From a virus, in the IMG/VR virus record IMGVR_UViG_3300007539_000009, positions 64,001 to 128,000 of that record: a stretch of DNA of 64,000 bases; one strand, 5' to 3'. Below, in pieces: positions 1 to 57,000 of the stretch. Each line of letters starts with the position of its first letter. Position 1 is the first letter of the stretch. The position numbers and the translations under genes were made by a program. The notes below the pieces were generated by a model. The model had not been told where the DNA came from and searched no databases. It was given only the letters and a program-made list of their open reading frames with translations.

Positions 1-3000
1 ACAGACAGACCTTTGTCGATCAGACCCTTACGTGCACCAGGCGTTGTGCTGAGGTAGGCGCCAAGGTCGTGGCCTTCTGCGTAGGACTTGCCGACGATGA
101 TCGGTACGACCTGGTTTTTGTGGTCACGGGTGCCTACGGGGCTAAGCACCATCTGCTGGATCTGGCCTTTCTTGCCCAGCGCGCCAGACAGCGGACCAGC
201 CTCGACGAACCGGTTGTTGATTGCAGCGTCTAGCAACAAGCTGAGCTCCGCCACGGCCTCGTTAGCCGCTACGTCGTACCCGACGGTCTTGCTGCGGCGC
301 TTAGCCTTCCTAATCACCGCATCCCGCTTCTTCGTGTCGATTTCCAGGTCGCGGAGACTGACGCTGAAGCCGACTTCGGTGACGTAGTGGTTGCCGAGGT
401 TCTTGACCTCTGTGATTACACGCGCTGCTTCGCCGGACGAGAGCTCGCGCCCCGCACGCTCCAGATCGGCGTCCATGAGCTTACGTGTCGTTGAGCGGTA
501 CGCAGGCCGCACAGCTTGCGGGAAAGTCTGCGCGTAGATCCACTGGCCGATGCAGTGCACCTGCCCGCCCACGCGTGCCGCCTGGTTCGCCTTGACCTTC
601 TTGTCGCGGTAGAGCTGGAACAGGCTTTCCCAGTTACTCACTGACGGCGTGTTGCCTCTGACCTTTGGGGTGGTCATCAGGTACACACCCAGCGCAGTCT
701 CCTTGGTCGGCGAATGTACGAGACTGTGGTCCTGCGGGCTGAACAGGTTTTTGCTAGGCAGCAGCCGGTCAAACGCCTCTTTGCGCGCCTCTTCCGACAC
801 CGGCACATGGATACCCGCCGTGTCGCCGTCGAAGTCCATGTTGAAGCCACCCACAATCAGCGGGTTGACCTCAACGGCCTTGCCTTGGATCAGTCGCGGC
901 TTAAACGCTTGGATCGAGAACTTGTGCAGCGACGGGGCGCGGTTCATCAGCACAGGCCGATGCTCCATCTCAATCTCGAGCGCCTTGACGGCCAGCGGAT
1001 CGTTCTCTTCGATCGCTTTGCGTGCTTCGATAGGTGTCTTGCCCATCGACTGCAGCCGCTTGACCACAAACGGCTTGTACACCCGAGCTGCCATCTCTTG
1101 AGGCACACCGACCTCATCGAGATGCATCTTCGGGTTCGGAATTACGGTTGACCGCCCCGTAAGATCCTGCGCCCTACCGGACACTTTCGATTGGAAGAAC
1201 CCATACTTCGGAGCTGTCTTCCCTTTGATCTGTGAGACGAAACCTTGAAAGTTGCGTGCGCGAGTAAGTGGGTCACTCGTTCCGACCACACCTCCCACGG
1301 CTCCCGTGAGTGCTTGGTAGAGCGGACGTAGGTTCTCCTCATCAACCCCGAGACGGCGCAGCTCGCGAATCTGGTTGTTGACGAGCATGACTTCCCGGTA
1401 TCCGTGCACTGCGTCAGCAACACTCAGCGTCCCATCAGGCTGCACCGCAATCTGACGGAACTTGGGCGGAATCACGGGGAGCTGTTTGTTTACATAGGCG
1501 TCGGCAGGCTTGATGCCTGACACTTTCAACGCCTTCAAGTACCGCAGCCGCTTGTGCGCCTTATCCAGCCCAGTGCCGCGCTTACCAGCAGCGGCTTTCT
1601 CGGTGATCTGAATCTCTTTCTCTACGTCAACGTTATCCAGGATGCGGCGGACACCGTCAGCCCCAGTGATGTTGCCCTCGGCTTCTTCAGTGATCTGACC
1701 GTCGGGCGTCACGAACAGCTGACGATCGATGATCTGCTGCAGCTGCTTCTTAGTCTTGAAGGCGCCGACTGCTGCGACAGCATCGATCATCAACGGGTGG
1801 ACAACCGGAGTTTCGAGGGTGATGTGGTTCCAGCGGTTTCCACCAATGCCGCCTGTCAGGCCAGGATCAAACAGCCCGCCCTTCTCAGGGTTCAGGTTCT
1901 TCGCGTTGACTACCAGCGGCTTCTTCAGCTCGCCGCTCGACATCGACAGGATCTCGTTGTCAGTCATAGGTGTAGCTTTGATAGTGCTACCTGACTGCTC
2001 GAGATTGATGCCAGCTGCGAGCAACATGGCAATGAACTTCTCTTCTACAAACGGCGTCTGCGGAGGAGGGGTCGGCTGCCCGGTTTGTACCGCGCGCCAG
2101 TACTCGTCGTTGCGCTGACTCTTGAGCCCGAACGCGTCGTGCAAGAACGCGGTGGCATCGCCGGACAGCAACGAGAACGTGTCTAGCGCGCCAATACGCT
2201 GCGCACTGGCGTCACCGCCTTTGGTCGGCTGTTGGTCAACGGAGTAACGCTCACCAGTAGCGGCGCGTGCAGAGATCTTCTTCGATACCTGGTGCTTCAG
2301 CTTGAACCAGGTCATGTTCCCGACGAGCACGTCATCGAGCTGGTCGCCCGTGGTGGGATCAACGATCGTCTCCTCGTCGCTGATTCCAGCGTCTGCGAGC
2401 TCCTTCTTGAGCTTCTGCAGTGTGCCGGCAGTGCCCTTCTCGTTGAAGTTGTCTGCGTAGTAGACCTTGCCCGTCTTCTCTGCGAGCTTGCCAGCTGCTG
2501 CTTCAAACAGCTGACCAGTATTGACACGCCCCGGCACGCCAGCCGGGTTCATTAGCAGGTCAATGGTCTGGTCATCCTGACCTTTGGGCATTTCGTTGTC
2601 CGGAAGGATGCAGTTTCCCGACCAATGACATTTACCGTTTCGTCGGACATATACCAAACCACCAGGGACTGTCACGCAGAACACCTCACCGCTGTACTCA
2701 GTGGTGTATCGATCTTTGTTCTGGAACCCCTGCTCAACGCGATCACGGTACAGAGATAAGCACCACTGATCGCGATACTCGTTGCGACCAGCAACAAATC
2801 GAATGACCCCGCTACCTCCTGTGAGAACCCAGGCGCGGTGCAAGTCTACTGCAAGCTGTTCTGAGGTTATCGAAATACACATAGCTTGGTGCTTCGGCCG
2901 TTTCGCGCCGTCGCCCAAGTTGAACGCGTCTACAAGTCGTGTGAGCGCTGCCTGAGACGTATGAAACCAATGCTCAGGTATGTACTTCTCCCACGCATTA

Positions 3001-6000
3001 CCCAGGCTGTGCAGATACTCGTACACAGCTTTGTTGGCGAACCGGAAATAGCCGTGCCCTCGAGATTTATCGGTGTAGTGGTACTTCCAGGTGATCCCTA
3101 ACTTGGTGAGCAAGGCCCCGATACGTTTACAGTTGTCGGGATTAGCTACCTGGCTTTGGGCGATATGAATGCGATACTGACGCACTTGTGCGACGCCGTA
3201 CCGACCACCGGCTAAGCAGCCTTCAGCCAGATACCATCCCAGCAGCTCGGCGAAGTCTTCAGTATTGAACTTACGAAGACAGTCACGCCCTTTAGCTCTT
3301 GCTGCTTTTGGTAGTACAAACACTGCGGCAGTGTGTTCAGGAAGCGAAGATTTAGCTGCGTACTGCAGGTACCGACGTCCCTTGACTTCATCAGCTCGCT
3401 GGAACTTGTATTCAGCGGTCTGACCGCGATAGTGCTCGATGCGGCTCCACACCCGATGGTCTGGCGTTACCAGATAGTCGAGGTGGTCGTTGGCCACTCC
3501 GTACATCGGCCCAGAGTAATCGAACCGATGAAGTGCTTCTGGTGTGACGAACTCAAGACGGCCGCCTATTTGCGCGCTAATCTTATCTGATAGCGTCAGC
3601 TCTGAAAACGGCTTCCAGCCATTGGCAGTGAGAATATCTGTCTGATCGTCAAAGCAGGTCACGATGCCCTTAGATCCGTGGCGAGATGACAGCTTGTCAC
3701 CGACCTGCATCTGCTCTTTGGTGTGGATGTAGACCTTGACAAATCCACGTGACTCCACAACGTCAACAACAGTGCCCTCATATGCACTGTCCCAGACTTC
3801 TGAGATGTCTACGAACTTCAAGCCCGCACTGCGGTGCAGCTTGCTGTAGTCGTACTCCGGGTGGTACTCCGCTTCCTGGATAGCGGGGATCAGCACAGTA
3901 CCCGGAGGCACTGTTGCACCCTTTTTGACTATGCCGGACTCGGTGTAGAGGTCAGCAGGACAGTTGGCGACTTCAGTAGGGAAGGCAGCCAGGTATTTCT
4001 TACGCCCGACATGTACCTTCTTCTTGATCTGTACGCGGAACTCATACTTGTGCGTAGAGGTCAGCTTCTTGGCGCACGACTCAGAAATGACGATACCGTC
4101 CTCGAAGTTGTACCCCTTCCAGGCGGTGTACGCGACTTTGAGGTTCTTCCCCATAGCCAGCGAACCGTCTTTGGTGAAGTTGTTTCGCGCTACGTCCTGG
4201 CCAGCTTTGACACGGTCTCCTACTTTGACGATCGGCTCGTCGTGCAAGTAGGTGTTTGAGTTCAGCGGATAGTTATGCCTAAGCGGCACTTTGTAGACGC
4301 GACCACGACTAGGTCGGATCTTGATGTAGTCGTCAGTGACCTCAGTCACCACACCGCCACGAGCCTCGCCAGTGCGGATGTCGACAGCCTTAGGCGTTAG
4401 CGCTGACCCAAACAGCTCCTCGTAGCCACCTCCTGCAAGCCGGTGCTGCACTAGAGGCTTGTCGGGGTCTACAAGCCCTACCGACTGTTCAACGTGCTTG
4501 TCCCCCATCAACACACGGTTCGCGTGGTTGTTGTTGAGGAATGGCACCATTGCCGTGGTGCTCGAGAAGAACGCGTCAGGCGACACGAAGATGTAGTCAA
4601 CCTCGCTAGCCTTAACGTCAGCGATCTGGTTGCGCCGACGTGCGCGGACCGACTCGGGGTCTTTCGGCTTAGGTTTGCCATCAAAGCCCTTCTTGGGGTC
4701 CTCCGGCATGTTGCTGTACTGGTCAGGGAACGCAACGGTCGTACCGTCGAGGTCCTGAACAGACACCTCGGTGCGCTTACCTGTCGCTGCAACGTAGACA
4801 GGCACAAAGAGCGTCTGCCCTTTCTTGATAGCACCAAGCGAGAGGTGGTTGGTCACACCGACCTTATCGCCCTCAGGTGTATGCAGCGGGTCGAGCAGGC
4901 TGAAGTGCGACGGGTGTACGGTGCGCACGTCGTCAGTAATGGCGTGCGAGCTCGAGATGCCGCCGTCTCCGATGGTTGTGACCAAGGCATTGACCGAGGC
5001 CATGTCCAGCGGGTTGTTCTGGTCGCTGTAGCGCGTGAACTCCGACGTGGTGAAGAACTGGGTGACCGGCTCAGAGAACGTCATCGGCGGGATGACAGAG
5101 TCGATCGTCGGGTTCCGCATCAGCTCGAACTTGAGCTTGCGCTGAATGGCAGGAGCAGCGTTCTGGATCTTCTCAGGTACGAAGTCCTCGACTGAGTGGA
5201 TCGATTTGAACGCCAGAGACTCTTTGTCGTCTGCCTGCGCTTCCTTGCGCGAAACAGCCAGCGCTTTCTTGACGCCTTCGTAGAACGCCGAGCGATCAAT
5301 CTTGCTGACCGGCCGGCCTACCGTCAGCTTGTTGACAGCAGGGTCCAGCGGCTTTGATTCCATGAACTCCCTGACGAGCCTCATCTGCTCGTCGAGTTCG
5401 TTGCTCTGCGCGTAGGGCCGCAGCTTCGACAACATACGCTCTACGTCTCTGCGCAGATCCGCAGCCTCGAAGTTAGTCGGGTAGAGCTCGTTCGTCAGCA
5501 ACTGCCGGATCTCAGCATCGCGCATCCCCATGCAGCGCAGCACAGAGTAGATCGGCACATGGAAGCCGGAGCCGATACGCAGCCGGATTAGACCCGTATC
5601 CCGGTTAAGCAGGATTTTGAGCGTTCTCGACGCTGTGGTGTTGAGGAACACCTCAACCTGGTTGTCGTTAGCATCTGACGTGTAGATACCAGGACGCAGA
5701 CGAAACTGGCTGACGACTTGGACTTCCTTGCCCTTTACCAGGTAGCTGCCGTTGGCCGTAAGGTGCGGTATTAGCAAGATCGGATGCCGGTTTTTCTCGT
5801 CCAGCACCTTGCCACTCTCGTTCTTGATCTTGACGTCAGCTACCAGGACAGCATTGAGCGTGCCCTCTTTGAGCTTCACGTCTCGCTGTCGCTTGACGTC
5901 TAGCAGTACGTCAGCACCCACTTTGCGCCAACGGAAGTTGGACGCAGTAAGCGTGCTCTTGTCCCCGATCACCGGGAACTGAGCTTTGACGATGTCCTCG

Positions 6001-6050
6001 CTTTTAGCCAGGAGCTCCGTGAAGCGCTCTAAGTGCGCGGACTCAATCAT
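1..6050 (-). CDS. Multi-subunit-type RNA polymerase, beta and beta-prime fused in one ORF (3' end outside window); contains an intein
   Basis: Hand translation from ATG at 6050 (MIESAHLERF...); the segments I translated share one frame from 6050 to base 3. Beta motifs: DQNNPL, VHPSHFSLLDPLHTPEG, GYNFEDGIVISE, GDKLSSRHGSKGIV, LLMNPAGVPGRVNTGQLFE. Beta-prime motifs: GGLFD, SGRAQDLTGRSTVIP, VLMNRAPSLHKFSIQAF, NMDFDGD (822-842), GARKGLID (18-38). Missing from ORF track because it has no stop in the window. Confidence 0.95.
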   Translation of the reverse strand, partial: MIESAHLERFTELLAKSEDIVKAQFPVIGDKSTLTASNFRWRKVGADVLLDVKRQRDVKLKEGTLNAVLVADVKIKNESGKVLDEKNRHPILLIPHLTANGSYLVKGKEVQVVSQFRLRPGIYTSDANDNQVEVFLNTTASRTLKILLNRDTGLIRLRIGSGFHVPIYSVLRCMGMRDAEIRQLLTNELYPTNFEAADLRRDVERMLSKLRPYAQSNELDEQMRLVREFMESKPLDPAVNKLTVGRPVSKIDRSAFYEGVKKALAVSRKEAQADDKESLAFKSIHSVEDFVPEKIQNAAPAIQRKLKFELMRNPTIDSVIPPMTFSEPVTQFFTTSEFTRYSDQNNPLDMASVNALVTTIGDGGISSSHAITDDVRTVHPSHFSLLDPLHTPEGDKVGVTNHLSLGAIKKGQTLFVPVYVAATGKRTEVSVQDLDGTTVAFPDQYSNMPEDPKKGFDGKPKPKDPESVRARRRNQIADVKASEVDYIFVSPDAFFSSTTAMVPFLNNNHANRVLMGDKHVEQSVGLVDPDKPLVQHRLAGGGYEELFGSALTPKAVDIRTGEARGGVVTEVTDDYIKIRPSRGRVYKVPLRHNYPLNSNTYLHDEPIVKVGDRVKAGQDVARNNFTKDGSLAMGKNLKVAYTAWKGYNFEDGIVISESCAKKLTSTHKYEFRVQIKKKVHVGRKKYLAAFPTEVANCPADLYTESGIVKKGATVPPGTVLIPAIQEAEYHPEYDYSKLHRSAGLKFVDISEVWDSAYEGTVVDVVESRGFVKVYIHTKEQMQVGDKLSSRHGSKGIVTCFDDQTDILTANGWKPFSELTLSDKISAQIGGRLEFVTPEALHRFDYSGPMYGVANDHLDYLVTPDHRVWSRIEHYRGQTAEYKFQRADEVKGRRYLQYAAKSSLPEHTAAVFVLPKAARAKGRDCLRKFNTEDFAELLGWYLAEGCLAGGRYGVAQVRQYRIHIAQSQVANPDNCKRIGALLTKLGITWKYHYTDKSRGHGYFRFANKAVYEYLHSLGNAWEKYIPEHWFHTSQAALTRLVDAFNLGDGAKRPKHQAMCISITSEQLAVDLHRAWVLTGGSGVIRFVAGRNEYRDQWCLSLYRDRVEQGFQNKDRYTTEYSGEVFCVTVPGGLVYVRRNGKCHWSGNCILPDNEMPKGQDDQTIDLLMNPAGVPGRVNTGQLFEAAAGKLAEKTGKVYYADNFNEKGTAGTLQKLKKELADAGISDEETIVDPTTGDQLDDVLVGNMTWFKLKHQVSKKISARAATGERYSVDQQPTKGGDASAQRIGALDTFSLLSGDATAFLHDAFGLKSQRNDEYWRAVQTGQPTPPPQTPFVEEKFIAMLLAAGINLEQSGSTIKATPMTDNEILSMSSGELKKPLVVNAKNLNPEKGGLFDPGLTGGIGGNRWNHITLETPVVHPLMIDAVAAVGAFKTKKQLQQIIDRQLFVTPDGQITEEAEGNITGADGVRRILDNVDVEKEIQITEKAAAGKRGTGLDKAHKRLRYLKALKVSGIKPADAYVNKQLPVIPPKFRQIAVQPDGTLSVADAVHGYREVMLVNNQIRELRRLGVDEENLRPLYQALTGAVGGVVGTSDPLTRARNFQGFVSQIKGKTAPKYGFFQSKVSGRAQDLTGRSTVIPNPKMHLDEVGVPQEMAARVYKPFVVKRLQSMGKTPIEARKAIEENDPLAVKALEIEMEHRPVLMNRAPSLHKFSIQAFKPRLIQGKAVEVNPLIVGGFNMDFDGDTAGIHVPVSEEARKEAFDRLLPSKNLFSPQDHSLVHSPTKETALGVYLMTTPKVRGNTPSVSNWESLFQLYRDKKVKANQAARVGGQVHCIGQWIYAQTFPQAVRPAYRSTTRKLMDADLERAGRELSSGEAARVITEVKNLGNHYVTEVGFSVSLRDLEIDTKKRDAVIRKAKRRSKTVGYDVAANEAVAELSLLLDAAINNRFVEAGPLSGALGKKGQIQQMVLSPVGTRDHKNQVVPIIVGKSYAEGHDLGAYLSTTPGARKGLIDKGLS
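2613..3656 (-). mobile_element. Intein (348 aa) with LAGLIDADG homing endonuclease, in RNAP beta moiety
   Basis: In-frame insertion between ...GSKGIVT and CILPDNEMP. Starts CFDDQTDILT (block A), has LLGWYLAEG and LVDAFNLGDG dodecapeptide motifs, YSGEVFCVTV (block F), ends HWSGN followed by extein Cys. Confidence 0.93.
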
Positions 6051-8435: not shown

Positions 8436-9032
8436 TCACTTAGGCACGGCCATTTGGCCAATCTTGTTGGCTACGTACAGATCGATGTTGTAGAGGCGAT
8501 TCGACTGTACCTGAACGACATCCTCTAGATCAGGGTTGTCATTCCGCTTGGGCTGAATCGCGCGAATAAGGTCTTTGTACTCAGCGTCTGGTTCAGGCTG
8601 AGCAAAGGCAAGCATAGCTGGGTACTTGATCAGCCCGTCGCGTCGGCAGCACGCCTGCACGTACCCCTGCACTTCACGGCTGAACGTGCGCTTCTTGAGC
8701 GGCAGCAAAGCTCGAAGAGCATACTCAAGCTCCTCGACCGCGACCGGCTCGAACAAGTCAATGTCGTAAGGCAGATCGTTCATCGCCAGGCACGTGTTCT
8801 CGAACACGTGGGCATCCGTGAAGAATCGATCTGTGAGCTTGAATGCCCGAAGAGCCATGATCTTGCTCTTCACAATGTCCGAGCACTGAGCGTGGAACTC
8901 GCGCTCAATCTCGGACCACAGCGTCTCCGGCTCCCATTCCAACCAGGCGCCACCAAACTGCTTACTCAGCAGCTCTTGGTAGACGCCTGGAAGTATGTGG
9001 TGGGCGCGAAATACGCCCGCAAGCTCTTTCAT
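8436..9032 (-). CDS. Hypothetical protein in head operon (198 aa)
   Basis: Globular-looking ORF coupled between the KxA-rich gene and portal. Confidence 0.8.
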   Translation of the reverse strand: MKELAGVFRAHHILPGVYQELLSKQFGGAWLEWEPETLWSEIEREFHAQCSDIVKSKIMALRAFKLTDRFFTDAHVFENTCLAMNDLPYDIDLFEPVAVEELEYALRALLPLKKRTFSREVQGYVQACCRRDGLIKYPAMLAFAQPEPDAEYKDLIRAIQPKRNDNPDLEDVVQVQSNRLYNIDLYVANKIGQMAVPK

Positions 9033-10051
9033 CAGCCAAAGTACTCGTCGAGGGCTTCGCGGTACGGCCCATCGAACTCAGACTTCAGATCTCGAGCAAC
9101 GCTGGCCGTCTTGACGTACGAAGTATCCCATCGCGGGAACCTGTTCTCAAGATCAACCAGGAACTGATCCTTGGTTGTCAGACCCTCCGCAGGAGCCAGC
9201 TTGTGCTGTGCCTCCATGCGCCGAAGCTCGTTGGCTGTCTTGCGCAGGTCCATACCACCGAAGCAGGCAAGGTACGGGTCGCGCATCTCCGGGCCGTATT
9301 TGGGACGAAGGCCAGCTGCACGATCGAGCGTTTCGATCTCTTGGGCGAGCTTGATGCCGTCCTGTGGGTCGTCTAGCACCGGCTGGTGGTTAGCCAGCTT
9401 GGTGTAGATGTCCGAGAACTCAGTGCCCTCTGTCAGGGTGCTTCGGTCTCTGAGCTCGCCCTCGAACCACGGGCCCAGAATCGGCTTCGGCACGTAGTCC
9501 CAGACTCGATCGTCAGTGATGGCAGCAGTTCCAGCCTGCTTGAGCAGGCCGTCCGCAAACTCACAACGATCACGCGGAGTCATCTTGGAGTAGTTGCGAA
9601 CGAACTGATCCTGCAGCACTTCGGCGACCTTCTCGAGGCTGCCAACGCACTGCTGCTCCGGGGCCTGCTCTACCACCACTTGAATGACGGTCGGGTCCGC
9701 ATCGCTCGCTGCTTCTGCCAGCTTCTGCAGTCCAGAGCTGGGCCGGAGGCCGTAGTGCTCGAACGCTGCATTGATCCGCGAAGCAGCCGTCTTCACCACA
9801 TCCTCGGGCAGCGACTCAGCGTTGCTCTCGAGATACGCTGCTGAGAAGAACGCAGCTGCGCGGGTGTGGATCGGGTATCGGCGTTGATTGACACTACCGT
9901 CAGCGATCTTCACGGCGAAGGCGCGGTCGGGAAGCGAGTCAATCTCGTGAGGGTGGGGGAGCTCCTTACCGAAGAGCTGTTGGGCGTCGATGCTGTTGAC
10001 GAACGAAGGATCGTCATACGCATCGATCACCATCCCGGCGAGTTTGAACAT
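9032..10051 (-). CDS. K-x-A motif-rich protein (candidate scaffold or prohead core protein)
   Basis: 339 aa; 11 of 17 Lys followed by Ala at +2 (hand count); overlap-coupled in head operon. Function is inference. Confidence 0.75.
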   Translation of the reverse strand: MFKLAGMVIDAYDDPSFVNSIDAQQLFGKELPHPHEIDSLPDRAFAVKIADGSVNQRRYPIHTRAAAFFSAAYLESNAESLPEDVVKTAASRINAAFEHYGLRPSSGLQKLAEAASDADPTVIQVVVEQAPEQQCVGSLEKVAEVLQDQFVRNYSKMTPRDRCEFADGLLKQAGTAAITDDRVWDYVPKPILGPWFEGELRDRSTLTEGTEFSDIYTKLANHQPVLDDPQDGIKLAQEIETLDRAAGLRPKYGPEMRDPYLACFGGMDLRKTANELRRMEAQHKLAPAEGLTTKDQFLVDLENRFPRWDTSYVKTASVARDLKSEFDGPYREALDEYFG

Positions 10052-10683
10052 CAGTTCTTGGCCTCCTGGCCGTCCTTGGTCTTGGCAGCAGGCTTTTTGT
10101 CCTGCTTAGCGTCCTTGTCGTCCGCTTTGCCCTTACTCGGCTTAACCGTGGCCTTGGCCGCCGCACCAGCCACATCAGGCTTCTTACCTGACGCCTTCGG
10201 CTCAGCCTTTTCGGACTTTGCCTTATCTGCTGCTTTGGCCTCAGCCTTCGGTTCGGCCGAACCCTTAGACCCAGATGCCCGGGTCTTAACAGCCGCAGCT
10301 GCACCGGCTGTAGCCGGATTCTTAGCTTCTGCGATCTGCTGTTCGAGTTGCGTGTATTGGAGTCTGAGTTTTGCGTTCTCTACCAGCGTCTGGAGTCGCT
10401 GGTTCTCTGCCTGCACGGGATCGATCATCATCCCGGGCGGAGGCGCTGCACCGACAGCGGCGTCTGCAGGCTGCTCGGGAGCGGCAGGACCGGTTTGCGT
10501 AACCTCGTCCGGCACTGCAGGGGCCTGCTGAGCGGCAGGATCACCCTGCGGCTTGGGGGCTTTGGCTGACGGCATCTGCTGCCCAGGAAGGCTGCGCTGC
10601 TGTGTAGCGTCCCACTTGAGCTCGATGTTGGCGAGCTTAGCCAGGCCGTCTACGTAGCCGCGGTAGAGGGTTCGGACGTTCAT
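10051..10683 (-). CDS. Ala/Pro/Lys-rich low-complexity protein with central coiled coil
   Basis: 210 aa; N-terminal RGYVDGLAKLA motif; coupled to next gene. Confidence 0.75.
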   Translation of the reverse strand: MNVRTLYRGYVDGLAKLANIELKWDATQQRSLPGQQMPSAKAPKPQGDPAAQQAPAVPDEVTQTGPAAPEQPADAAVGAAPPPGMMIDPVQAENQRLQTLVENAKLRLQYTQLEQQIAEAKNPATAGAAAAVKTRASGSKGSAEPKAEAKAADKAKSEKAEPKASGKKPDVAGAAAKATVKPSKGKADDKDAKQDKKPAAKTKDGQEAKN

Positions 10684-17086: not shown

Positions 17087-17332
17087 TCAATTACCGCCTA
17101 GTGGCCCCCGCACAGGAGGCATCACCAGTGCGAGCTTGACCGGCACGAACTCGATCAACGCGTGCTCGTCTTGGTAGTCGAGAGCCTCCTCTAAAGAGGC
17201 AAAGATCAGCGGTGCTGATGAACCTTCAGTGGTCACGCATTTCTCCGCGCCACGCCAGGAGATGTCTGGATAAGGCGAATGCAGTACCCAGCATTCGTAG
17301 TCAATCGTGAGCTTCTTCGTGGCGAACTTCAT
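17087..17332 (-). CDS. Hypothetical protein (81 aa)
   Basis: ORF in minus-strand gene train. Confidence 0.6.
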   Translation of the reverse strand: MKFATKKLTIDYECWVLHSPYPDISWRGAEKCVTTEGSSAPLIFASLEEALDYQDEHALIEFVPVKLALVMPPVRGPLGGN

Positions 17333-17669
17333 GCACTGTGAGTCCTGCTTGGAGTGCCTGCTTGACGCAGTTCTTGGTACCGGACCCGCCAGGGAACGCC
17401 ACGATTGTGCGCGCGATCCCTAGATCGATCATCTCCTTGTTGCGAATCGGTCCAGCCGCTCGGCCGTGCTTGTCCCAGTCCGCCGGAACGGTGAGGCAGC
17501 GCACAGCGCGATCAGCTGCCCAGACACGGGCAAGATGGTCTGCGCCTTCTGCTCCACCCTGGATAACCATGGTCGGTTTGAGGCGGTCTAGCACTTCGTA
17601 GACGCGGGTGGTGTCGCTGTAGGTGCTACCGCCAGTGACGATGACTGCGTTGTTTCCAGGGTCTTCCAT
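17301..17669 (-). CDS. SLOG-superfamily protein (YspA/DUF2493-like)
   Basis: VIVTGG, VIQGGAEGADHLA, ADWDKHGRAAGPIRNKEM, VAFPGGSGT motifs; start moved to ATG 17669, just after the upstream stop. Confidence 0.85.
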   Translation of the reverse strand: MEDPGNNAVIVTGGSTYSDTTRVYEVLDRLKPTMVIQGGAEGADHLARVWAADRAVRCLTVPADWDKHGRAAGPIRNKEMIDLGIARTIVAFPGGSGTKNCVKQALQAGLTVHEVRHEEAHD

Positions 17670-17670
17670 T

Positions 17671-18762
17671 TCAAGCCGGAACAAGGGACTGCTGCACGGT
17701 TTGGGGAGCGTCGAGAACAACTTCGTAGCGTTTGTTTTCGACAGTGGCGGATGAGGGTCCTACCCAGGTGTGCGCTACGAACACCTGGCGAGGCGTGCCG
17801 TCGTGGTTGCGACGATAGCGCTCATGACGAAGAGTCTTCCAGTGCGCTCTGCGCGCATGACCGTGAGTGAGCTGACGGCCAGCCTCACTCGACGCATCGA
17901 TCTTGAATGTCTCTCGGATCTGCTTTCTAGTCAAGAGGGTGTAGTTGGGGCGTTGCCACCCACGGCGGATAGCACCCTTCTTCGGCTTAGAGCCGGTAGT
18001 TGCTTGTGATTTCACCAACCACCGGTCGCCGCTGTTGAGCAGGCAAAGCTCTTCGACTGCTGTGGTAGGGTGGGTGATGAAGTCCTGCCGCGTAGGTGCC
18101 CACCTATCGTTGTCGTCCATCATCTGCTCTTCAGTCAGCGGACGATCAACAATCACGAGGTCCTTTGCGTACATCTGCATACCGAACGGGACGACGCCGA
18201 CTTTGTAGTCCGGCCCGGGGCCATCACCGTCACCTTCCGCCATGCGAAACACGCCGCTAAGGATGTAAGTAGCGCAGCCCCGCAAGTCCCTCCTGTCTGT
18301 GGTGACGCCGTACATGCGCCGAAAGTCTGCCAGGATGTCGGCATCGGCGTCTTTGTCCATGAACCCGTCACCTGTCACGGCCGGCATGAACACTGCGAAG
18401 CCGCGCACGCTGTCCGTGCCGAAGTCGCGCTTCTCTCCTTTCGCAGGAAGCATGTCACTGAGCTTGATACTGCCAGGATCCATCCCCTGACTTCGCGTAG
18501 AGATGTCAAACAGCACCACACACGATCGCCGATCCTCCACCGCTGTCACCGGAAACGGCAACGCGAACATGCTGAAGTCCTGACTGGCGAGCTCTGCCTT
18601 GTGCTTGCGCATCTCCTCGTTGGGGTCGAACTCGAAGTGAAACAGTGATGCTTTGCGCAGCAGCTGCCCGTACTGCTCATCGAGCCGAGAGTGCCATTCG
18701 CAAAGCCGACACGCCTGGTCAAAGATCGGTGTATTACTCATCGAGTGCCGCGCAGTCATCAA
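17671..18762 (-). CDS. Hypothetical protein (~360 aa) with basic His/Arg-rich C-terminus
   Basis: C-terminal HGHARRAHWKTLRHERY...VFVAHTWVG motif of a type often seen in phage hypotheticals. Confidence 0.8.
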   Translation of the reverse strand: MMTARHSMSNTPIFDQACRLCEWHSRLDEQYGQLLRKASLFHFEFDPNEEMRKHKAELASQDFSMFALPFPVTAVEDRRSCVVLFDISTRSQGMDPGSIKLSDMLPAKGEKRDFGTDSVRGFAVFMPAVTGDGFMDKDADADILADFRRMYGVTTDRRDLRGCATYILSGVFRMAEGDGDGPGPDYKVGVVPFGMQMYAKDLVIVDRPLTEEQMMDDNDRWAPTRQDFITHPTTAVEELCLLNSGDRWLVKSQATTGSKPKKGAIRRGWQRPNYTLLTRKQIRETFKIDASSEAGRQLTHGHARRAHWKTLRHERYRRNHDGTPRQVFVAHTWVGPSSATVENKRYEVVLDAPQTVQQSLVPA

Positions 18763-20768: not shown

Positions 20769-21998
20769 TCAGCAGTTCCACTTGTCGAGCGCAAGCTTCT
20801 TCCGCGTCGGTTTGCCGCTCTTGTCGTGCATCGGCCCCGGCATCCCGCCCATCCGTGCACAGAAGCTCTTGCGCCTCTTGTCCTCGCTTGAGCCCGGCTT
20901 GATCTTGCTCGGGTCCTTGGTAACCGCCATCTTAAGCTTGCTGCCTGGATTAGCTTCTCGATACGACTGAACACCTTTGCGGTTCAGCCCGCCCGTCTTG
21001 CTCTTGCCTTCGCTGCGAGTCCATGCAGGTGTCTCCGACGCTTGTTTCTTGAGCTTGCGCTTACGCTCTTTCGCCTCTTCGCCGCCTGCGTGGCCGTCTA
21101 TGAGCGACTTGGAGGCGTAGATGTCGGTGCGGCGTGCGGCGATCTTCTGCAGCTCGTCCTCGAAGCCACGAAGCATCGCTGTCTTGGCCACGTGCGCGTT
21201 GTCGATCCAGTTGGGGTAGGGCCGACCGTTAGCTGCAGCGCGTGCTTTTGCTCGAGACTTCTGCTCGGGCGTCAGCGTCTTGCTCTTACCTTTGGCTTCC
21301 TTCGGGTTCTTCTTGTCCCAGGGAGCCTCCTCAGCCGCTTTGAGCATCCCGCCGCCAGTGAGAGAGCCGGCAGCTCGGCTGGTGATGTTGTTGCTGCTCA
21401 ACGTGTTACGTAGGTGGTTCGGGGCACTGACTTGACCCATCATCGGCTTCGGCGGCTTGTTCATCTGCATCGACCTTATCGGCTTGAGCGAAGGCGGCTT
21501 CGGCAGCGCCTTGAGCATACTGAGAACTGCAGCTGCTTTCACCAGCCGACCGTCAGCTGCGACGCCCGGGGGTCGGGCAGTAGTGTCTTTCTTCACGCGA
21601 CTTGCGTACCTGCCTGCGGCGTAGATCAGCCCGGCAACAGCAGCACCTTTGATGGCGTTGTTGCGAGCGCTGTTGCGAATAATTTTGAGCCCAGCTTTCC
21701 CCAAGTCTTGTGCACCTTGGTTGTAGCTAGATGAGATTCGGGCGCGAGTACTAGGGGAACCGGCTAAGTACTGCGAGCGCATTGCGGGGTCAGTCTTGAT
21801 TGCCTTAGCAACAGCCCGTGACGCTCCCGACCAGCGAGCTGATTGGCCCGCTTGACGCGCCACCTTGCTGTCAAGACCTTGCAGGCCCTTGGTGATGTTG
21901 TCGGCCGCACGACGGAGACCCTTGTAGTAGCCTCTTACTGCGCCGAGGGCCGCACCGGTGATTACGACCTCGCCATATCGCTTAGCTCGATCACTCAC
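20769..21998 (-). CDS. Basic mosaic protein with KxA-delimited modules; C-terminal DUF6321-like domain
   Basis: 409 aa, Lys/Arg-rich; C-terminal PAWTRSEGKSKTGGLNRKG...RRKSFCARMGGM...LALDKWNC recalls DUF6321 (from memory). Confidence 0.75.
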   Translation of the reverse strand: MSDRAKRYGEVVITGAALGAVRGYYKGLRRAADNITKGLQGLDSKVARQAGQSARWSGASRAVAKAIKTDPAMRSQYLAGSPSTRARISSSYNQGAQDLGKAGLKIIRNSARNNAIKGAAVAGLIYAAGRYASRVKKDTTARPPGVAADGRLVKAAAVLSMLKALPKPPSLKPIRSMQMNKPPKPMMGQVSAPNHLRNTLSSNNITSRAAGSLTGGGMLKAAEEAPWDKKNPKEAKGKSKTLTPEQKSRAKARAAANGRPYPNWIDNAHVAKTAMLRGFEDELQKIAARRTDIYASKSLIDGHAGGEEAKERKRKLKKQASETPAWTRSEGKSKTGGLNRKGVQSYREANPGSKLKMAVTKDPSKIKPGSSEDKRRKSFCARMGGMPGPMHDKSGKPTRKKLALDKWNC

Positions 21999-51092: not shown

Positions 51093-54000
51093 TCAGCCAG
51101 CAACAGTAGCGACTACCTCAAAGGTAGCCTGGTTGTCAGAGTTCACAGGGATACCAGTCGGGTCGACCATAGCCATGAGCTCGACTACAGCCATCATCTC
51201 GCCATCAGGGTAGTAAGACACCGGCTCCCACTGCGTCGTGAGCGCCTCGCCGGTTACCGGATGTTTGATCTTCAGCGGCGACGTGTCAGAGTACTTGAGC
51301 CCTGCAGGCAGCGGGATCGTACCGCGTACTAAGATTGATCCGCTGTACGTCGCGGGCATGTTGATAATCAGTAGTCCGACTGTCGTATCGCCAGGACCAA
51401 TCGTGTTGAAGTTACTGTCCTGGAACGCAGCTGTGATCTCTAGTGACGTAAGTGTGTCGTCAGCACTAGGAACACCGTAATCAACAAGCCCACTCAGTAG
51501 GTTCGAGGTGTACGCACCGCTGGTAACAGCCTCGAATACGTTGTCGGCCGCGATCAAGAGGTAGATTCTGGAGCTGAGATACTCCTCTTTTGCTACGTCG
51601 CCTGAGCCGTTGATGTTGGCGTCCAGCCGCACCGGGTCGAGCTCCACTAACTGGCTGGACGAAGCCAGCGTGTTGCCGACAATCCTAGCTACACGGCAGC
51701 CGGCAACCATCAAAGCAGTCAAGCTAAATCTCGGGTCGATGAACGGCCAGGTGCTGCGATATCGGTACAAGAGATCCGCCCGAACACGGTCCCCGCTAGA
51801 GCCCACAGCTTCTCCGACGCCAGGGTTACTGACTGCGGCAAAGCTACGGTTACGCGCAGGCACATCGACTGACCAAGCACCAGTGCCGTTGGCTACACCA
51901 GACGTAGGAGCCAGATTTTCGATGTCGTTGATCCGAATGATGTTGCCCTCGATGTTGAGGTTGCCTACCTGCTGGTTGCCGCCACGGATATCAAACACGC
52001 CGTAGGCTGTGGAGCCTACCAGCTCAGGCGCGAACGTCCCGTCGAACACAGGCGGGTAGAACGTCTGACTCCCTCCAGTGACCGGGTGGACGTCGGAGCC
52101 GGGCAGCACTGGCCACGTGTTGATGAGGTTCTGGAACTCAGTAGGCAGCGGCGCACTAGGGTCGGTGGGGCCGAACGCCATGACACCCTCGACGATGTCT
52201 TGGTACGAGATCAGCGGTACCCCATCTCGATCTGTCAAGTAGACCGGCCAGTGCTCGTAGTACGCCGTGTTGTTGCGGAACGTGAACTGCGGCCCGTCGT
52301 TCACGTCAACACCGTTACCGCACATGTACCGTAGGTGACTCAGGTTCAGGTTGTAGCCAAGGCGGATGTTGTTGTTCTCGATCCGCACCTGGCCGTACTG
52401 ATGGCCTGATATGTCCACAGCCGACTCGGCGTGCGAGAGGCCCGTATCCCTGATCACGTTGTCTGTGATTAACAGCGTGCCCCACGACGGTCCGCCAGTA
52501 TCGGAAGAAATCGTTCCCGGAGCGGTCAACAGGTCCCGGTCTGGCGGTCCGAACTGGTTGCCAGTCAACCTGCTCAGTACGCGAACACCTGAACGACCAC
52601 ATAGACGGATAGTGCTGAACTCGACCAGCGTCTCATCGCCGCCTACGTTGCGCAGTTCAATGCCGTGGCGCTGAGCAATGTTGACAACGCTGCCACCGCT
52701 CCAAACGAAGTCCCAGACGTTACGGGCGGTCACGCCCCACAGAGACTCGCGGCCACCACCGTACACCAGGTTCGGGACGTTGCTCGGGTCCGGATACAGG
52801 TCGGCCACCGTCTCGTCATAGTTGGGATGGGACGGATCGCCAGGCCAACCAGGGAAGAACGGGCCACCTGGCTGATCGCCTGAGCCAACACGCAACGGCG
52901 GCCGGTTGTCATCGACCTCGAAGAAGTCTTCTCCGTCCTGCGTATTCCCTACTACCGCGTTCAGCACCGTGGCATGCGAGTAGTTGGGGTAATACACATC
53001 TGCTTCAGTCGCAGCCCCAGGGTAAATTCCGTCGTTGAACGACTGTGTTGGGAACGACTCAGGACCGCCGTATGCGTAGATGTAGAAAGGTACATCTACG
53101 GGATTGATAGCCGGGTTGCTGGGCGTGAACCGGAGTGTGATCGGTGCGCCAAACTTGCCGCTAAACGCCGAGGTCACGGCGGCGATGGAATCGGCCGTAA
53201 CTTCTAGGCGAAGCTGTGTAGCCAGCAGGCCCCCGCGCACAGTCCAAGCGGCCGGATCCTCGCCAGGCGTCGCTGCGATCACTTCCCACTGGTTGCCTGC
53301 GACAAGCGGCGTTGAATCAGCAACAGTGATACTCACCGTACCGATCGTCGAGCTGTCTAGATCAACTACGCCGTCATCATCAGTGAACTTGATGACGGTA
53401 GAGAACACCTCAGTACTCAGTCGATTAGCGCCGAACGCTGTGTTGTACGCGGCATCGCGCGGGAATACCCATACGTCACTGTGCTTGGCCACCAGCACAG
53501 CCTGCGTAGCGACCGGATACGTCACGCCGTCCCGGAACTCGAGGTTCAGTAGACGTCGAGCACGTCCATCCGGAAGCTGCGGATCATCAAACACTACGTC
53601 GAGGTTGTAGATAGCAGCCACGCTCGCACTTGTAATGCGAGCGAGCAGCATACCGCCACCTACGGGTAGCGTGATCGTATTGCCGAAGGTCAACTGCTGG
53701 TTACCAGCCGACGTAAGGAAGTTGATTACGCCTGTGCTGCCAAAGCCACCTCCGCCGATGTAACGCACAGTTGCAGTACGCCGCAGCGGATTACCCGGAG
53801 CGTTGTCGTATGTGTCGGGATCAGGGTCTCCGTAGCCAGACCAGAACACTTCGTCCGGCGCTGTGTACAGCGAGTTGTTGACGTAGTACTTCGGGTCGTT
53901 AACGTTGCTGACGCCTGCCGTGGCTGTCGGCGGGGCGAAGCCAAAGACGAAAGCATTAGGCCGTGTCCGCGACATAGGCAGCAGGCTGACGTCGAACGCA

Positions 54001-57000
54001 ACAGCGTCATCAACTTCATCCTTAGTCCAGGCAATCTTGTTTGCCGGAGCCACGGTGTTGCCTTGATCGTCGTACTGATCTTGCGCATCCTGATCAGCAC
54101 CAAGAGGGCCACGAATCCAACGGTTAGGCGCAAGGCGAACCAGCGCGTGATCCCACTCACCCAGCACAGCGCAACGATGGAACTCAAGGCCCTGCCACTT
54201 AGTAGATGACGTTCCCTGATCGATCTTGAGCGGGTTATCGTTCGTGTTGACGTTGGAGTCCTTGAGCTTGAGCACCGACACTTTGCCCGGTGTTTTGATA
54301 GCTGCAGACTCACCTGCACGGATCTTCAGGTCGTAGAAGTGAACGTGCTGGTTAGCCGTCTGATAGTCGAAGAAGATCGACGCGTCAGCGCCAGGGTCTA
54401 TGACCACGGGCTCAGGCTCTGTAGCACCCGGCGTAGCCCGAATGATCAGGGGCTCTGTCGCAGTAGGCGTATGCAGTAGCTGCACCTCCCCCGGACCATT
54501 AGAGTCCGTGAACGAGATAGCACCGTAAGCACCTGCGTCAATCTCAATGACGTCAAGCGCGCCCTTTGACCCTGACTCCTGCAAGAACACAGGCGTGCCG
54601 TCGGCCAACCCATCAGCACCATTGAGCACGCCTACTTGCCGCAACGCAGCAGCAAGCGGCTCTGTCGACGCAGTCTCCGTTGCGTCAGGTTCAGGAAGCA
54701 GGCGCTGCCACCCCGTCGGCGTCACCCGAATCGTGGCCGGGATGTCATCCTCTTCAGGGAAGGGGCCTTCCGGCACGCCGAACGGCACGACTGTCAGGTC
54801 TAGCTCGTTTGATGCGTACTGACCCGTGAACACTGCAATCTTGTAGTTAACAAGGTTCTGCAGCGCGAACGACGGCGCTACGAACGTGATAGTGCCCGGG
54901 TCGACGAACGTTGTGGGGAGCGGCACGCTACCGTTAGCAAACACAGCAACCTCGCCGTCGAAGAACGTCGTAGTCGACGCTGCGTTGATGCGAACAGTTG
55001 TATCTCCACTGAACTGCAGAATCTTGCTAGGCGACAACGACTCGATGGTCGGAGGCGGGTTCACCACCGACGCCTGTGTCGTAATCGTCACCGTCTCGTT
55101 AGGCGATAGCGACGGGCTACCTGCCCAAGTGGCTTCCAGCGTGTACAGCCCGGCGCGAGTGAACCCAACGTCTTGGGTGATAACACCGTTGGTGGTCGAC
55201 TTGAACACCTCGGACCCGCTCTCGAACGTGCCGCCGTTCGAGGTGGTACTGGCGATAGACAGCGTGATGCTGCCGGTCGCTTGAGAGTCAAGCACCGCCT
55301 GCCCCTCGAAGTCCGAATCGATGAGTTGCGACGTGATGCGGAATCCCTGGTTGTTACCTACTTCCGGCAACACGACGAGAGCGGTCAGATCAGACTCAAG
55401 CGTATCTGCGGCAAGCGGACTTGTTGCCGGGGACGGGGACGCCGATGATGGAGACACCGAGATGTACGCTACTCCACCGGACTGACCACCTCCCGGAGCA
55501 AAGTTGAGGATGCTGAACACATAAGTGCCAGCAGTGCTCAGCAATGCAGGGTCAGGGCTTGCGATAAATAGTGTCGGCGACTGGTACGTGCCCGGAATGG
55601 GGGTCGTACCGTTAACGATGACACGCGCAGACTCGTCAAACCCGGAGCCGAAGAGTGAGATCGATGACGGAGGGCTTGCGGTAGAACCAGTGCTAGGGGT
55701 GATGCTGAGCAGCGTCGGCACCGGGTTGTTCACTGTGATCGCCGCTGAGTCTTCAGTCAGCACTCCACTAGTGAACCTGACCTCATATGCTCCTCCCTCG
55801 TCGATGCGGAGATCATCGAAGATCGCAAGGCCACCGGTTGTTAGCTTTGAGGTTGTGCCGCTCAGTACGCCATCGAACGAGGTAGGCGCAAGCTGGGCAA
55901 CGATGGGGACGCCTGAGTCCTCATAGTCCGCATCGATGGTGCCTTCGTTTGTTTGCACCGATACCGCAACTGTGAACGTCTGGTTCTCGTTCAGCGACGA
56001 CTGCGGCTGTTGGTCTACAGACAACGAGATCGGCGGCGGATCAGGCGGATCGATAATCACTGACTCGCCTGTCACCAGCTGTGAGAAGGCAACGGCTACT
56101 TCCGCAAACGAGCCGACGCAGATGAAGCGCTCTACTGTGTAGCCTGCCGTGCTGACGCCGTCGGCCAGCAGCTCCTGCATCAGCAGCAGCGCGTTGAATT
56201 GACCGTACTTCTGCCCTACCGGGTTGAGCTGCCCTAAAGGAGGAAGAATCAGCGTCGACCGGACCGACGAGCTGATCACCTTATCGAGCGCGCAGATGCC
56301 TACAGCGCGCGTGCCTGTCTGGTTAGACAGGATCATGCCGCCGGGCAGGTCGCTCGGGAAGACCAGCTGATTCGCCGCAGAAAATCCTACTTCTGTAGGT
56401 CCGTCATCCCCGACAACCGGGAAGTATGTGTAGGCGCGTACAAACTCATCAGTCAGCGCCATGCTCAGCTGCGAGCGTGCCGAGCCGTCGCGGTTGGTGA
56501 GCTCGGGTGTGATGGTGCCGCGAACTCGAATGATTGACGGGTTGCCGAGGTAGTCGACTTCGACGTGCTTGTCGACACGGGCTGCACTGATAGTCAGCGA
56601 CGCACCCTGATACGAGAACGGCACGAGATACGGCATGTACACGTCCGTGCGAGCCGCCTTCTCGCCGAATTGAGAGAAGACTAGCGGTGTATCGCTGGGC
56701 TGCGTATACACCTGCAGCAGGTTGCCGCCCTCATTGACGAGGTAGCTGCCGGTGCGGTCAACGCCGCTAAACCCATACTGAGCCCCACGAGCTTTGGTCA
56801 GCGAGTTCAGTACGTTGACGCCATCCCAAGTGAGATCTGAGATAGCCCCACCAAACTCAGCCTCGAAAGTCAGCGTAGCCCGAGCGCCAACCAACGTCTG
56901 GTCACTGGCCAGCGTGCTGTGCGATACACCGTCAGGGTCAGGATCCGTCGGCTGGAGGAACCCGTCGTAGTGGTCTGAGTTGTCGAGATCGATCGACGCC

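Follow-up and report, generated by a model that had tools for sequence, protein, structure and literature searches.

A putative multi-module precursor of head-internal proteins, built of exchangeable cassettes, in a large uncultured phage

Introduction

Why would a phage chain several dissimilar basic modules into one protein, when two of them also exist elsewhere as small stand-alone proteins? The question is raised by one gene of an uncultured virus known from its genome sequence alone (IMG/VR record IMGVR_UViG_3300007539_000009; 183,184 bp, completeness approximately 95% according to CheckV). The stretch analyzed here, referred to as the window, comprises 64,000 nucleotides, bases 64001-128000 of that record. 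The open reading frame (ORF) under study, P0001, occupies window positions 20769..21998 on the minus strand and specifies a protein of 409 amino acids (aa) with an isoelectric point (pI) of 10.7. An initial annotation had described it as a cleavable precursor of small basic internal capsid proteins, with modules bounded by K-x-A motifs and shuffled as cassettes. Our findings partly support this interpretation: the ORF probably encodes a multi-module precursor of head-internal proteins, cut by a prohead protease at a motif stricter than K-x-A and built of exchangeable cassettes.

Results

Modules and candidate sites of the ORF

The sole Pfam family in the ORF is DUF6321 (PF19846), which matches aa 331-407 over its entire profile (positions 1-72/72; 71.7 bits, E value 7.9e-20) and passes the gathering cut-off of 28.5, confirming the DUF6321-like C-terminal domain proposed at the outset. 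The 183-kb genome holds one copy of this domain. The 55-position PHROGs profile phrog_34011 matches aa 225-273 (E value 5.7e-15; profile positions 6-51/55), and several long PHROG families have only the C-terminal domain in common with the ORF. A Tim17 match (E value 0.65) was treated as noise.

The sequence strings quoted in the initial annotation are all present (LVKAA|A, aa 152-157; MLKAA|E, aa 218-223; VAKTA, aa 270-274; RGFEDELQKIA, aa 277-287; LKKQA, aa 316-320), and the pieces that they delimit lie on the minus strand as follows. Module 1 (aa 1-156; 21531..21998) is basic (pI 11.2), is predicted to form a long helical hairpin, and ends in LVKAA (site 1, aa 152-156; 21531..21545). It has no transmembrane segment, a Kyte-Doolittle maximum of 1.28 ruling out such a reading of its Gly/Ala-rich stretches. 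Module 2 (aa 157-222; 21333..21530), Pro/Met-rich, with a pI of 12.0 and predicted disordered, ends in MLKAA (site 2, aa 218-222; 21333..21347). Module 3 (aa 223-274; 21177..21332), the WDKKNP...GRPYPNWIDN domain recognized by phrog_34011, ends in VAKTA (site 3, aa 270-274; 21177..21191). The next residues, aa 275-287 or MLRGFEDELQKIA (21138..21176), are an internal copy of the N-terminal leader used elsewhere in this genome and have a site on either side, the latter being LQKIA (site 4, aa 283-287; 21138..21152). A basic linker that occupies a variable slot (aa 288-320; 21039..21137) ends in LKKQA (site 5, aa 316-320; 21039..21053) and leads into the DUF6321 cargo domain (aa 321-409; 20772..21038). 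Basic character, originally ascribed to all modules, holds for every predicted piece except the 13-aa leader remnant, the only acidic one (pI 4.7).

An AlphaFold2 (AF2) model of the protein, with a mean predicted local distance difference test score (pLDDT) of 68.8, places long helices over aa 1-141 (helices 2-141, pLDDT 55-86), disorder over aa 173-222 (pLDDT <50), module 3 at a pLDDT of >90, confident helices over aa 241-300, and the DUF6321 domain at a pLDDT of 78-95. Sites 1, 2, and 5 fall at flexible points of this model. Foldseek found no match to it in the PDB at E values of ≤0.001, and a wide VIA fold search returned only generic coiled-coil matches to aa 1-143 (best Z 7.5), with the DUF6321 domain barely covered.

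A stricter motif is enriched in head-module proteins

As a delimiter, plain K-x-A was rejected, since it occurs in the ORF at chance level (10 instances versus 7.0 expected; P = 0.15 in 20,000 composition-preserving shuffles). The five named sites all have L, V, or M two residues ahead of the Lys, and the stricter motif [LIVMF]-x-K-x-A is overrepresented (5 versus 1.3; P = 0.0067); it is in this narrower form that the proposed boundary signal stands. Among 201 ORFs called crudely across the genome with a simple greedy caller, the stricter motif was counted 93 times versus 50.4 expected (z 6.2), and 60 times versus 18.3 (z 9.8) when followed by A, S, E, M, G, or N. Six controls (A-x-K, R-x-A, E-x-A, h-x-R-x-A, h-x-E-x-A, where h is [LIVMF], and the reversed motif) remained at expectation; the flat result for the reversed motif speaks against Lys/Ala-rich segments as a simple explanation of the excess. 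The consensus over 49 sites reads [DE]-[DEG]-L-x-K-[LTIV]-A-[ASE].

This excess is concentrated in a handful of proteins encoded by the head module, which adjoins the large terminase gene (phrog_675, E value 7.7e-66). Ten sites lie in a 560-aa protein, 9 in a 388-aa protein, 6 in a 457-aa protease candidate, and 3 to 4 apiece in small neighbors; the capsid protein candidate has a single one, LEKTA|E, at aa 26-30. Altogether, 17 proteins of the genome have a site inside their first 35-40 residues, and several of these share a longer leader, [FY]-x-D-E-L-x-K-[IL]-A. The MLRGFEDELQKIA-type tag found inside the ORF also stands at the N-termini of genome ORFs 36292, 42323, 47242, and 138263.

A separate observation concerns gene calling at the capsid gene candidate (genome 49041-50321, minus strand), where a length-based procedure fails: the overlapping frame at genome 48888-50330 on the plus strand is open (GC content at third codon positions [GC3], 0.56) but on the wrong strand, and the strand was corrected by hand.

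The head module encodes a gp21-fold protease candidate

The 457-aa protein (genome 52455-53828, approximately 10.2-11.5 kb ahead of the window start) weakly matches phrog_18299, a head maturation protease family (E value 1.6e-5). It has no Pfam match at E values up to 0.01, so the Peptidase_S77 (PF03420) threshold is not reached, and sequence searches against the PDB, with the single protein and as a profile, gave no match. In its AF2 model (pLDDT 82.9), aa 40-250 form a confident domain, a disordered linker follows from the site at aa 249-253 onward, and the C-terminal part is helical. The best structural match of this model is T4 gp21 (5jbl_A), with a VIA-align Z of 9.8 and a root mean square deviation of 2.8 Å over 138/165 residues; Foldseek assigned the same pair a probability of 0.99 and an E value of 0.025. 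Herpesvirus proteases (Z 7.2) and unrelated MCE domains (Z ~6) ranked below gp21.

No close relatives of the protease were found in viral_contigs; its homologues number 323, on contigs of up to 212 kb. H131, S182, and H208, which do not vary among 50 homologues, are candidates for catalytic residues. Nearly invariant as well are the sites near aa 30-34 and 249-253. These flank the catalytic domain, an arrangement that fits the self-processing described for gp21-type proteases of giant phages (PMC5694885). Over 120 protease homologues, which share ancestry, the motif was counted 672 times versus 105 expected, with controls flat or depleted. The same distribution recurs in L010, an NCBI contig of 185 kb with a protease 38% identical to this one: its head module has 27 sites versus 7.8 expected (z 7.1), spread over matching protein classes; the terminase lacks the motif, and the capsid protein has it once (MDKLA|E, aa 25-29).

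The protease family also has an invariant C192/C195/C206/H208 cluster within the catalytic domain, which may be a zinc site. We know of no such Cys/His cluster in gp21.

Module boundaries coincide with the sites

Wherever homologues permit comparison, their alignments to the ORF begin and end at the sites; they are mosaic rather than full-length and colinear. The resemblance of module 3 and the last module to small stand-alone phage proteins, proposed at the outset, is borne out on both counts. For module 3, in addition to phrog_34011, 48 clusters of 49-73-aa stand-alone proteins match aa 223-274 at 60-77% identity. These proteins start 4-6 residues ahead of the Trp and end 8-10 residues after VDN, like the predicted 52-aa product, and those encoded by genes of 51-55 aa have nearly the same ends. 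The DUF6321 domain stands alone in gp50 of Methylophilales phage MEP402 (101 aa), whose start, MAKTPAW, matches SETPAW of the ORF, and in phrog_4689 (99-position profile). Most of the 120 nearest homologues of the ORF share only aa 321/322-409 with it; a cut after LKKQA would yield a product starting at S321, where most of these alignments begin.

The closest relatives, P0003 (511 aa) and P0004 (partial), keep all five sites in a four-way alignment in which module 2 and the linker have strongly diverged. Site 1 reads LVKSA in both, site 2 LIKSA in P0003, site 3 is identical in both, site 4 reads LGKIA in P0003 and LQKVA in P0004, and site 5 reads LQKMA in P0003, MQKCA in P0004, and VTKLA in P0013, with K318 and A320 invariant. 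An 82-aa insert in P0004 begins directly after MLKAA and ends at NKDA. Homology to P0003 breaks directly after site 4, where approximately 125 aa, with a further LAKTA|E inside, replace the 33-aa linker between KIAA and LQKMA|E. P0013, from L011, has a leader-like VSELEKHA|A, a different middle module, VTKLA|S, and then DUF6321. Cassette shuffling thus holds in these nearest relatives and likewise in a second lineage (P0015, P0022, P0023, and P0057), in which modules are exchanged at ...TKEA| and ...LLKLA| junctions.

Stand-alone counterparts exist for aa 223-274 and 321-409, and modules 1 and 2 are orphans. The sole homologue of module 1 is P0003, and module 2 has P0004 as its only relative among 1.84 billion representatives; a viral_contigs scan with aa 1-222 found no match, and exhaustive HMMER searching of the 1.84 billion representatives returned P0004 only. 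With two very close homologues as the only relatives, the proposal that modules 1 and 2 are separate units was not confirmed, the sole indications of a division being the site at aa 152-156 and the predicted structure.

Leaders and junctions follow the phage group

After near-duplicates were collapsed, DUF6321 homologues fell into 47 architectures. In 35 of them, [LIVMF]-x-E directly precedes the domain, and 18 of these 35 open with leaders (MKSYKQFIA, MKTFKSFIVE, MKASEFINE) like the T4 capsid-targeting sequence, MKTYQEFIAE (PMC8442874). The K-x-A junction occurs in 8 of the 47; none has a T4-type leader, and two start MIKLA.../...KQA. Neither junction is present in the remaining 4, 3 of which read GGSTPAW. 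Cyanophages S-SCSM1 and ACG-2014f encode a Peptidase_S77 that passes the Pfam threshold (E values 2e-36 and 4.5e-34, respectively), and their long DUF6321-ending proteins have the junctions VSE|G and LPE|G, respectively. MEP402 has no S77 match and a free-standing DUF6321 gene. The DUF6321-ending ORF29 of S-SCSM1 is annotated as a virion protein; the paper on this phage reports that mass spectrometry of particles purified on CsCl served to identify virion proteins (PMC9602691).

The two types of junction occupy corresponding places. AARNE, at the end of module 3 in homologues with T4-type leaders, aligns by eye with VAKTA of site 3; as in T4-type internal proteins, a junction motif follows the leader of the ORF (LQKIA|A) and another precedes its DUF6321 domain (LKKQA|S). 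P0019 repeats its N-terminal leader, MSFTQFLNE, directly ahead of DUF6321, the same arrangement as the internal MLRGFEDELQKIA. L011, a member of the same clade with a fused rpoB-rpoC gene, has five consecutive small basic genes that begin with the same type of tag (M-x-F-Q-x-A-F-F-[DE]-E-L-x-K-x-A), followed by a DUF6321 gene. In L007, four neighboring genes start with MIKLANN..V[IL]KQA, one of them with DUF6321. A 471-aa gene of L007 was considered as a protease homologue and ruled out by hhalign (probability 0.8%).

Two further features of the DUF6321 family deserve mention in their own right. S-SCSM1 ORF29 (L004:2705-4258) and ACG-2014f gp123 (L009:614-2737) chain further small modules that recur in DUF6321 homologues (HxWF...GGWV, SAYASGxLVKCRK, and CWxGY...NCV), and precomputed Pfam matches on various homologues include DUF5872, DUF5661, and DUF5824. 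Moreover, P0003, P0015, P0022, P0023, P0057, and P0092 keep a Glu four residues before the domain Trp, e.g., KLA|ESAAW. The Glu of these K-x-A lineages corresponds in position to the residue that precedes the cut in T4-type proteins and is missing from the stand-alone gene. It may be left over from a transfer between phages whose proteases differ.

Further candidate substrates and the surrounding genes

The ORF (GC3, 0.69) starts with GTG, overlapping the stop of an upstream 1538-aa gene, an overlap also kept in the relative L006, and is followed by a 307-aa gene. In L006, the closest relative, an extra basic gene of ~184 aa with the leader YASELQKLA|E (L006:3355-3909) lies between the orthologs of the ORF and of a 304-aa gene, which indicates that leader-bearing genes come and go at this locus. 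Pfam and PHROGs searches of ten neighboring genes gave nothing useful except an exonuclease and a YspA/cpYpsA-related SLOG domain (PF10686, E value 2.4e-16), the latter in a 139-aa protein at window 17301-17720 (minus strand).

Two other minus-strand genes of the window are likely to encode further substrates. A 339-aa protein (9032..10051) starts with MFKLA|G and has 6 sites versus 0.5 expected; its L011 ortholog heads the leader-gene cluster that includes the DUF6321 gene. The adjacent 210-aa Ala/Lys/Pro-rich protein (10051..10683) has the N-terminal leader RGYVDGLAKLA|N.

A 2388-aa ORF adjoining the head genes covers window 1-6050 and extends beyond the window's first base (genome 62884-70050). 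Rpb2 and Rpb1 Pfam domains are combined in one L011 gene of >2000 aa, and a fused rpoB-rpoC gene is common to the clade comprising the phage studied here and L011. The largest ORF of the window (3636 aa) lies at 51093-62003 on the minus strand.

Discussion

A proposed cleavable precursor and the evidence for it

We propose that the gene arose by fusion of cassettes and that its product would be built into the prohead, as T4 internal proteins are. The gp21-fold protease would then cut the precursor at the [LIVMF]-x-K-x-A sites, most likely directly after the Ala, a placement chosen mainly because the by-eye alignment of AARNE with VAKTA puts the Ala at the position of the Glu. The expected products would be a helical 156-aa protein, a disordered 66-aa protein, the 52-aa WDKKNP module, a 13-aa acidic leader remnant, the 33-aa linker, and the 89-aa DUF6321 domain. 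M275-LRGFEDELQKIA is a copy of the N-terminal leader of the phage's other small basic proteins, and in relatives modules are inserted or replaced exactly at the sites. The released pieces may remain in the head, where the small basic modules may bind DNA. That the motif is a protease site is suggested by its head-confined enrichment in this genome and its clade, by the gp21-fold protease encoded there, and by the occurrence of the same cargo behind T4-type leaders and h-x-E junctions in phages with Peptidase_S77.

Several observations weigh against this precursor. The gene sits among very large fibre-like genes, ~30 kb away from the head module. Its own N-terminus, MSDRAKRYGEVV, has neither a leader nor a site, so that the shared N-terminal leader of T4-type proteins is missing, and the first site comes only at aa 152. 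In the structure model, a single confident helix (aa 264-300) contains both site 3 and site 4 and would be no obvious protease substrate, and the Met after site 3 is atypical for the motif. The shuffles behind the enrichment keep composition only, and the counts among homologues are not independent events. No protease was identified in the second lineage (L007), and for ORF29, which is listed in the S-SCSM1 supplement, we found no mass-spectrometry detection flag. Finally, cleavage in this phage and its relatives is a prediction from sequence comparison.

Alternative readings

Some of these observations would also suit a motif that is never cut. The [LIVMF]-x-K-x-A core, with its longer F-x-D-E-L-x-K-I-A helix, could dock onto or target a protein to the scaffold, the portal, or the inner capsid surface, the ORF being packaged intact. 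The helical setting of sites 3 and 4, the amphipathic helices formed by the leaders, the 9-10 copies in scaffold-like proteins, as expected of a repeated docking element, and the indirect case for cleavage itself all agree with such a role. We nonetheless regard it as unlikely, given that two phages with proteases only 38% identical each have a single site in the capsid protein, near its N-terminus and conserved in position, and that nearly invariant sites flank the catalytic domain of the protease, one at the start of a disordered linker, matching gp21-type self-cleavage (PMC5694885). Docking also does not account for stand-alone genes whose ends coincide with the sites, nor for h-x-E at the same positions in phages with Peptidase_S77. 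An ordinary uncleaved multi-domain protein of the virion or tail, with motifs that merely reflect Lys/Ala-rich linkers and no link to a head protease, seems quite improbable. The gene is indeed co-oriented and overlapping with a 1538-aa fibre-like gene, cyanophage DUF6321 proteins adjoin tail-fibre genes, and plain K-x-A is at chance (P = 0.15). However, the stricter motif exceeds expectation (P = 0.007), the reversed and R/E-substituted controls are flat genome-wide, and the five sites are kept where their flanks diverge. Moreover, four homology breakpoints lie ≤3 residues from a site, for which a rough estimate of ours, (35/409)^4, gives a chance of ~5e-5.

The frame itself could be misleading, either because an assembly error fused small genes or because translation starts internally at M275 to give a 135-aa leader-DUF6321 protein. 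Both conserved modules do have stand-alone versions, and M275 comes immediately after site 3, at the head of a sequence of the genome's N-terminal leader type. The same fused frame, however, recurs in independent samples (P0003 in L006, and P0004), and no Shine-Dalgarno-like sequence precedes M275, although this last point is weak, since only 22 of 155 genes have one. We consider this explanation highly improbable and retain cleavage of a multi-module precursor as the probable reading.

Implications

On a broader and more tentative level, it is possible that a clade of ~185-kb uncultured phages has re-tuned a gp21-fold protease from cutting after Glu to cutting at [LIVMF]-x-K-x-A|, nearer to the herpesvirus cut after Ala. 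Cargo domains (DUF6321, the WDKxNP module, and others) would circulate as cassettes among unrelated marine phage families, to be refitted with the leader and motif of the recipient or left free where such a protease is lacking, and several could be chained in one precursor. If true, gp21-fold capsid proteases are able to switch completely to other substrates, and a sequence rule predicts processed, head-packaged proteins in a large group of uncultured phages. The widespread marine-phage families DUF6321 and phrog_34011 would gain a testable role as head-internal, probably injected cargo. T4 internal proteins include anti-restriction factors (PMC3012670), which makes the cassettes candidates for early host take-over or counter-defence. 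Foreign proteins might also be loaded into capsids by means of the leaders and sites, a use to which the T4 leader has already been put.

With aa 331-407 and aa 225-273, the ORF contributes clear members to DUF6321 (PF19846) and phrog_34011, families without described function. Our literature search found no paper mentioning DUF6321 and a single review linking capsid-targeting sequences to cyanophage proteins. The leader, protease-type junction, and virion-annotation context are new information on both families.

Comparison with known head-cargo systems

The internal proteins of T4 are small, basic, and diverse cargo with a shared short leader, which are incorporated into the prohead core and from which the prohead protease removes the leader (PMC8442874, PMC3012670, PMC5694885). 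The system described here resembles them in that many DUF6321 homologues open with leaders close to MKTYQEFIAE, the phage protease has the gp21 fold, and the L011 and L007 clusters, like T4 internal-protein genes (PMC3012670), place diverse cargo behind a shared leader. Whereas T4 proteins are single units with one cut after L/I-x-E, the ORF chains several modules with five candidate sites, its motif has Lys and Ala in place of a hydrophobic residue and Glu, its sole leader copy is internal rather than N-terminal, and the protease of its phage falls below the Pfam Peptidase_S77 threshold.

In giant phages such as phiKZ, 201phi2-1, and SPN3US (proteases gp175, gp245), a single short motif marks the cut sites of many head proteins (PMC5694885, PMC10052503), propeptides can be long and multi-site, and the protease cuts its own C-terminal side (PMC5694885, PMC10052503). 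The phage studied here likewise has a large genome (183 kb) and a multi-subunit-type RNA polymerase adjoining the head genes. It differs in its motif, that of giant phages being S/A/G-x-E, and in its cargo modules, which are also free-standing genes in unrelated phages; no sequence similarity of its ORF to giant-phage substrates was found.

The herpesvirus assemblins share their fold with gp21 and with the protease of this phage (Z 7.2). Assemblins cut after Ala in (V/L/I)-x-A|S, and here, too, Ala would stand just before the proposed cut, followed by Ala, Ser, or Glu. The spacing, hydrophobic-x-Lys-x-Ala with an invariant Lys, is different from theirs, and the position of the cut is itself our inference. 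A different cleavage rule, chained modules, and cargo domains shared across phage families set this system apart from T4- and phiKZ-like head cargo.

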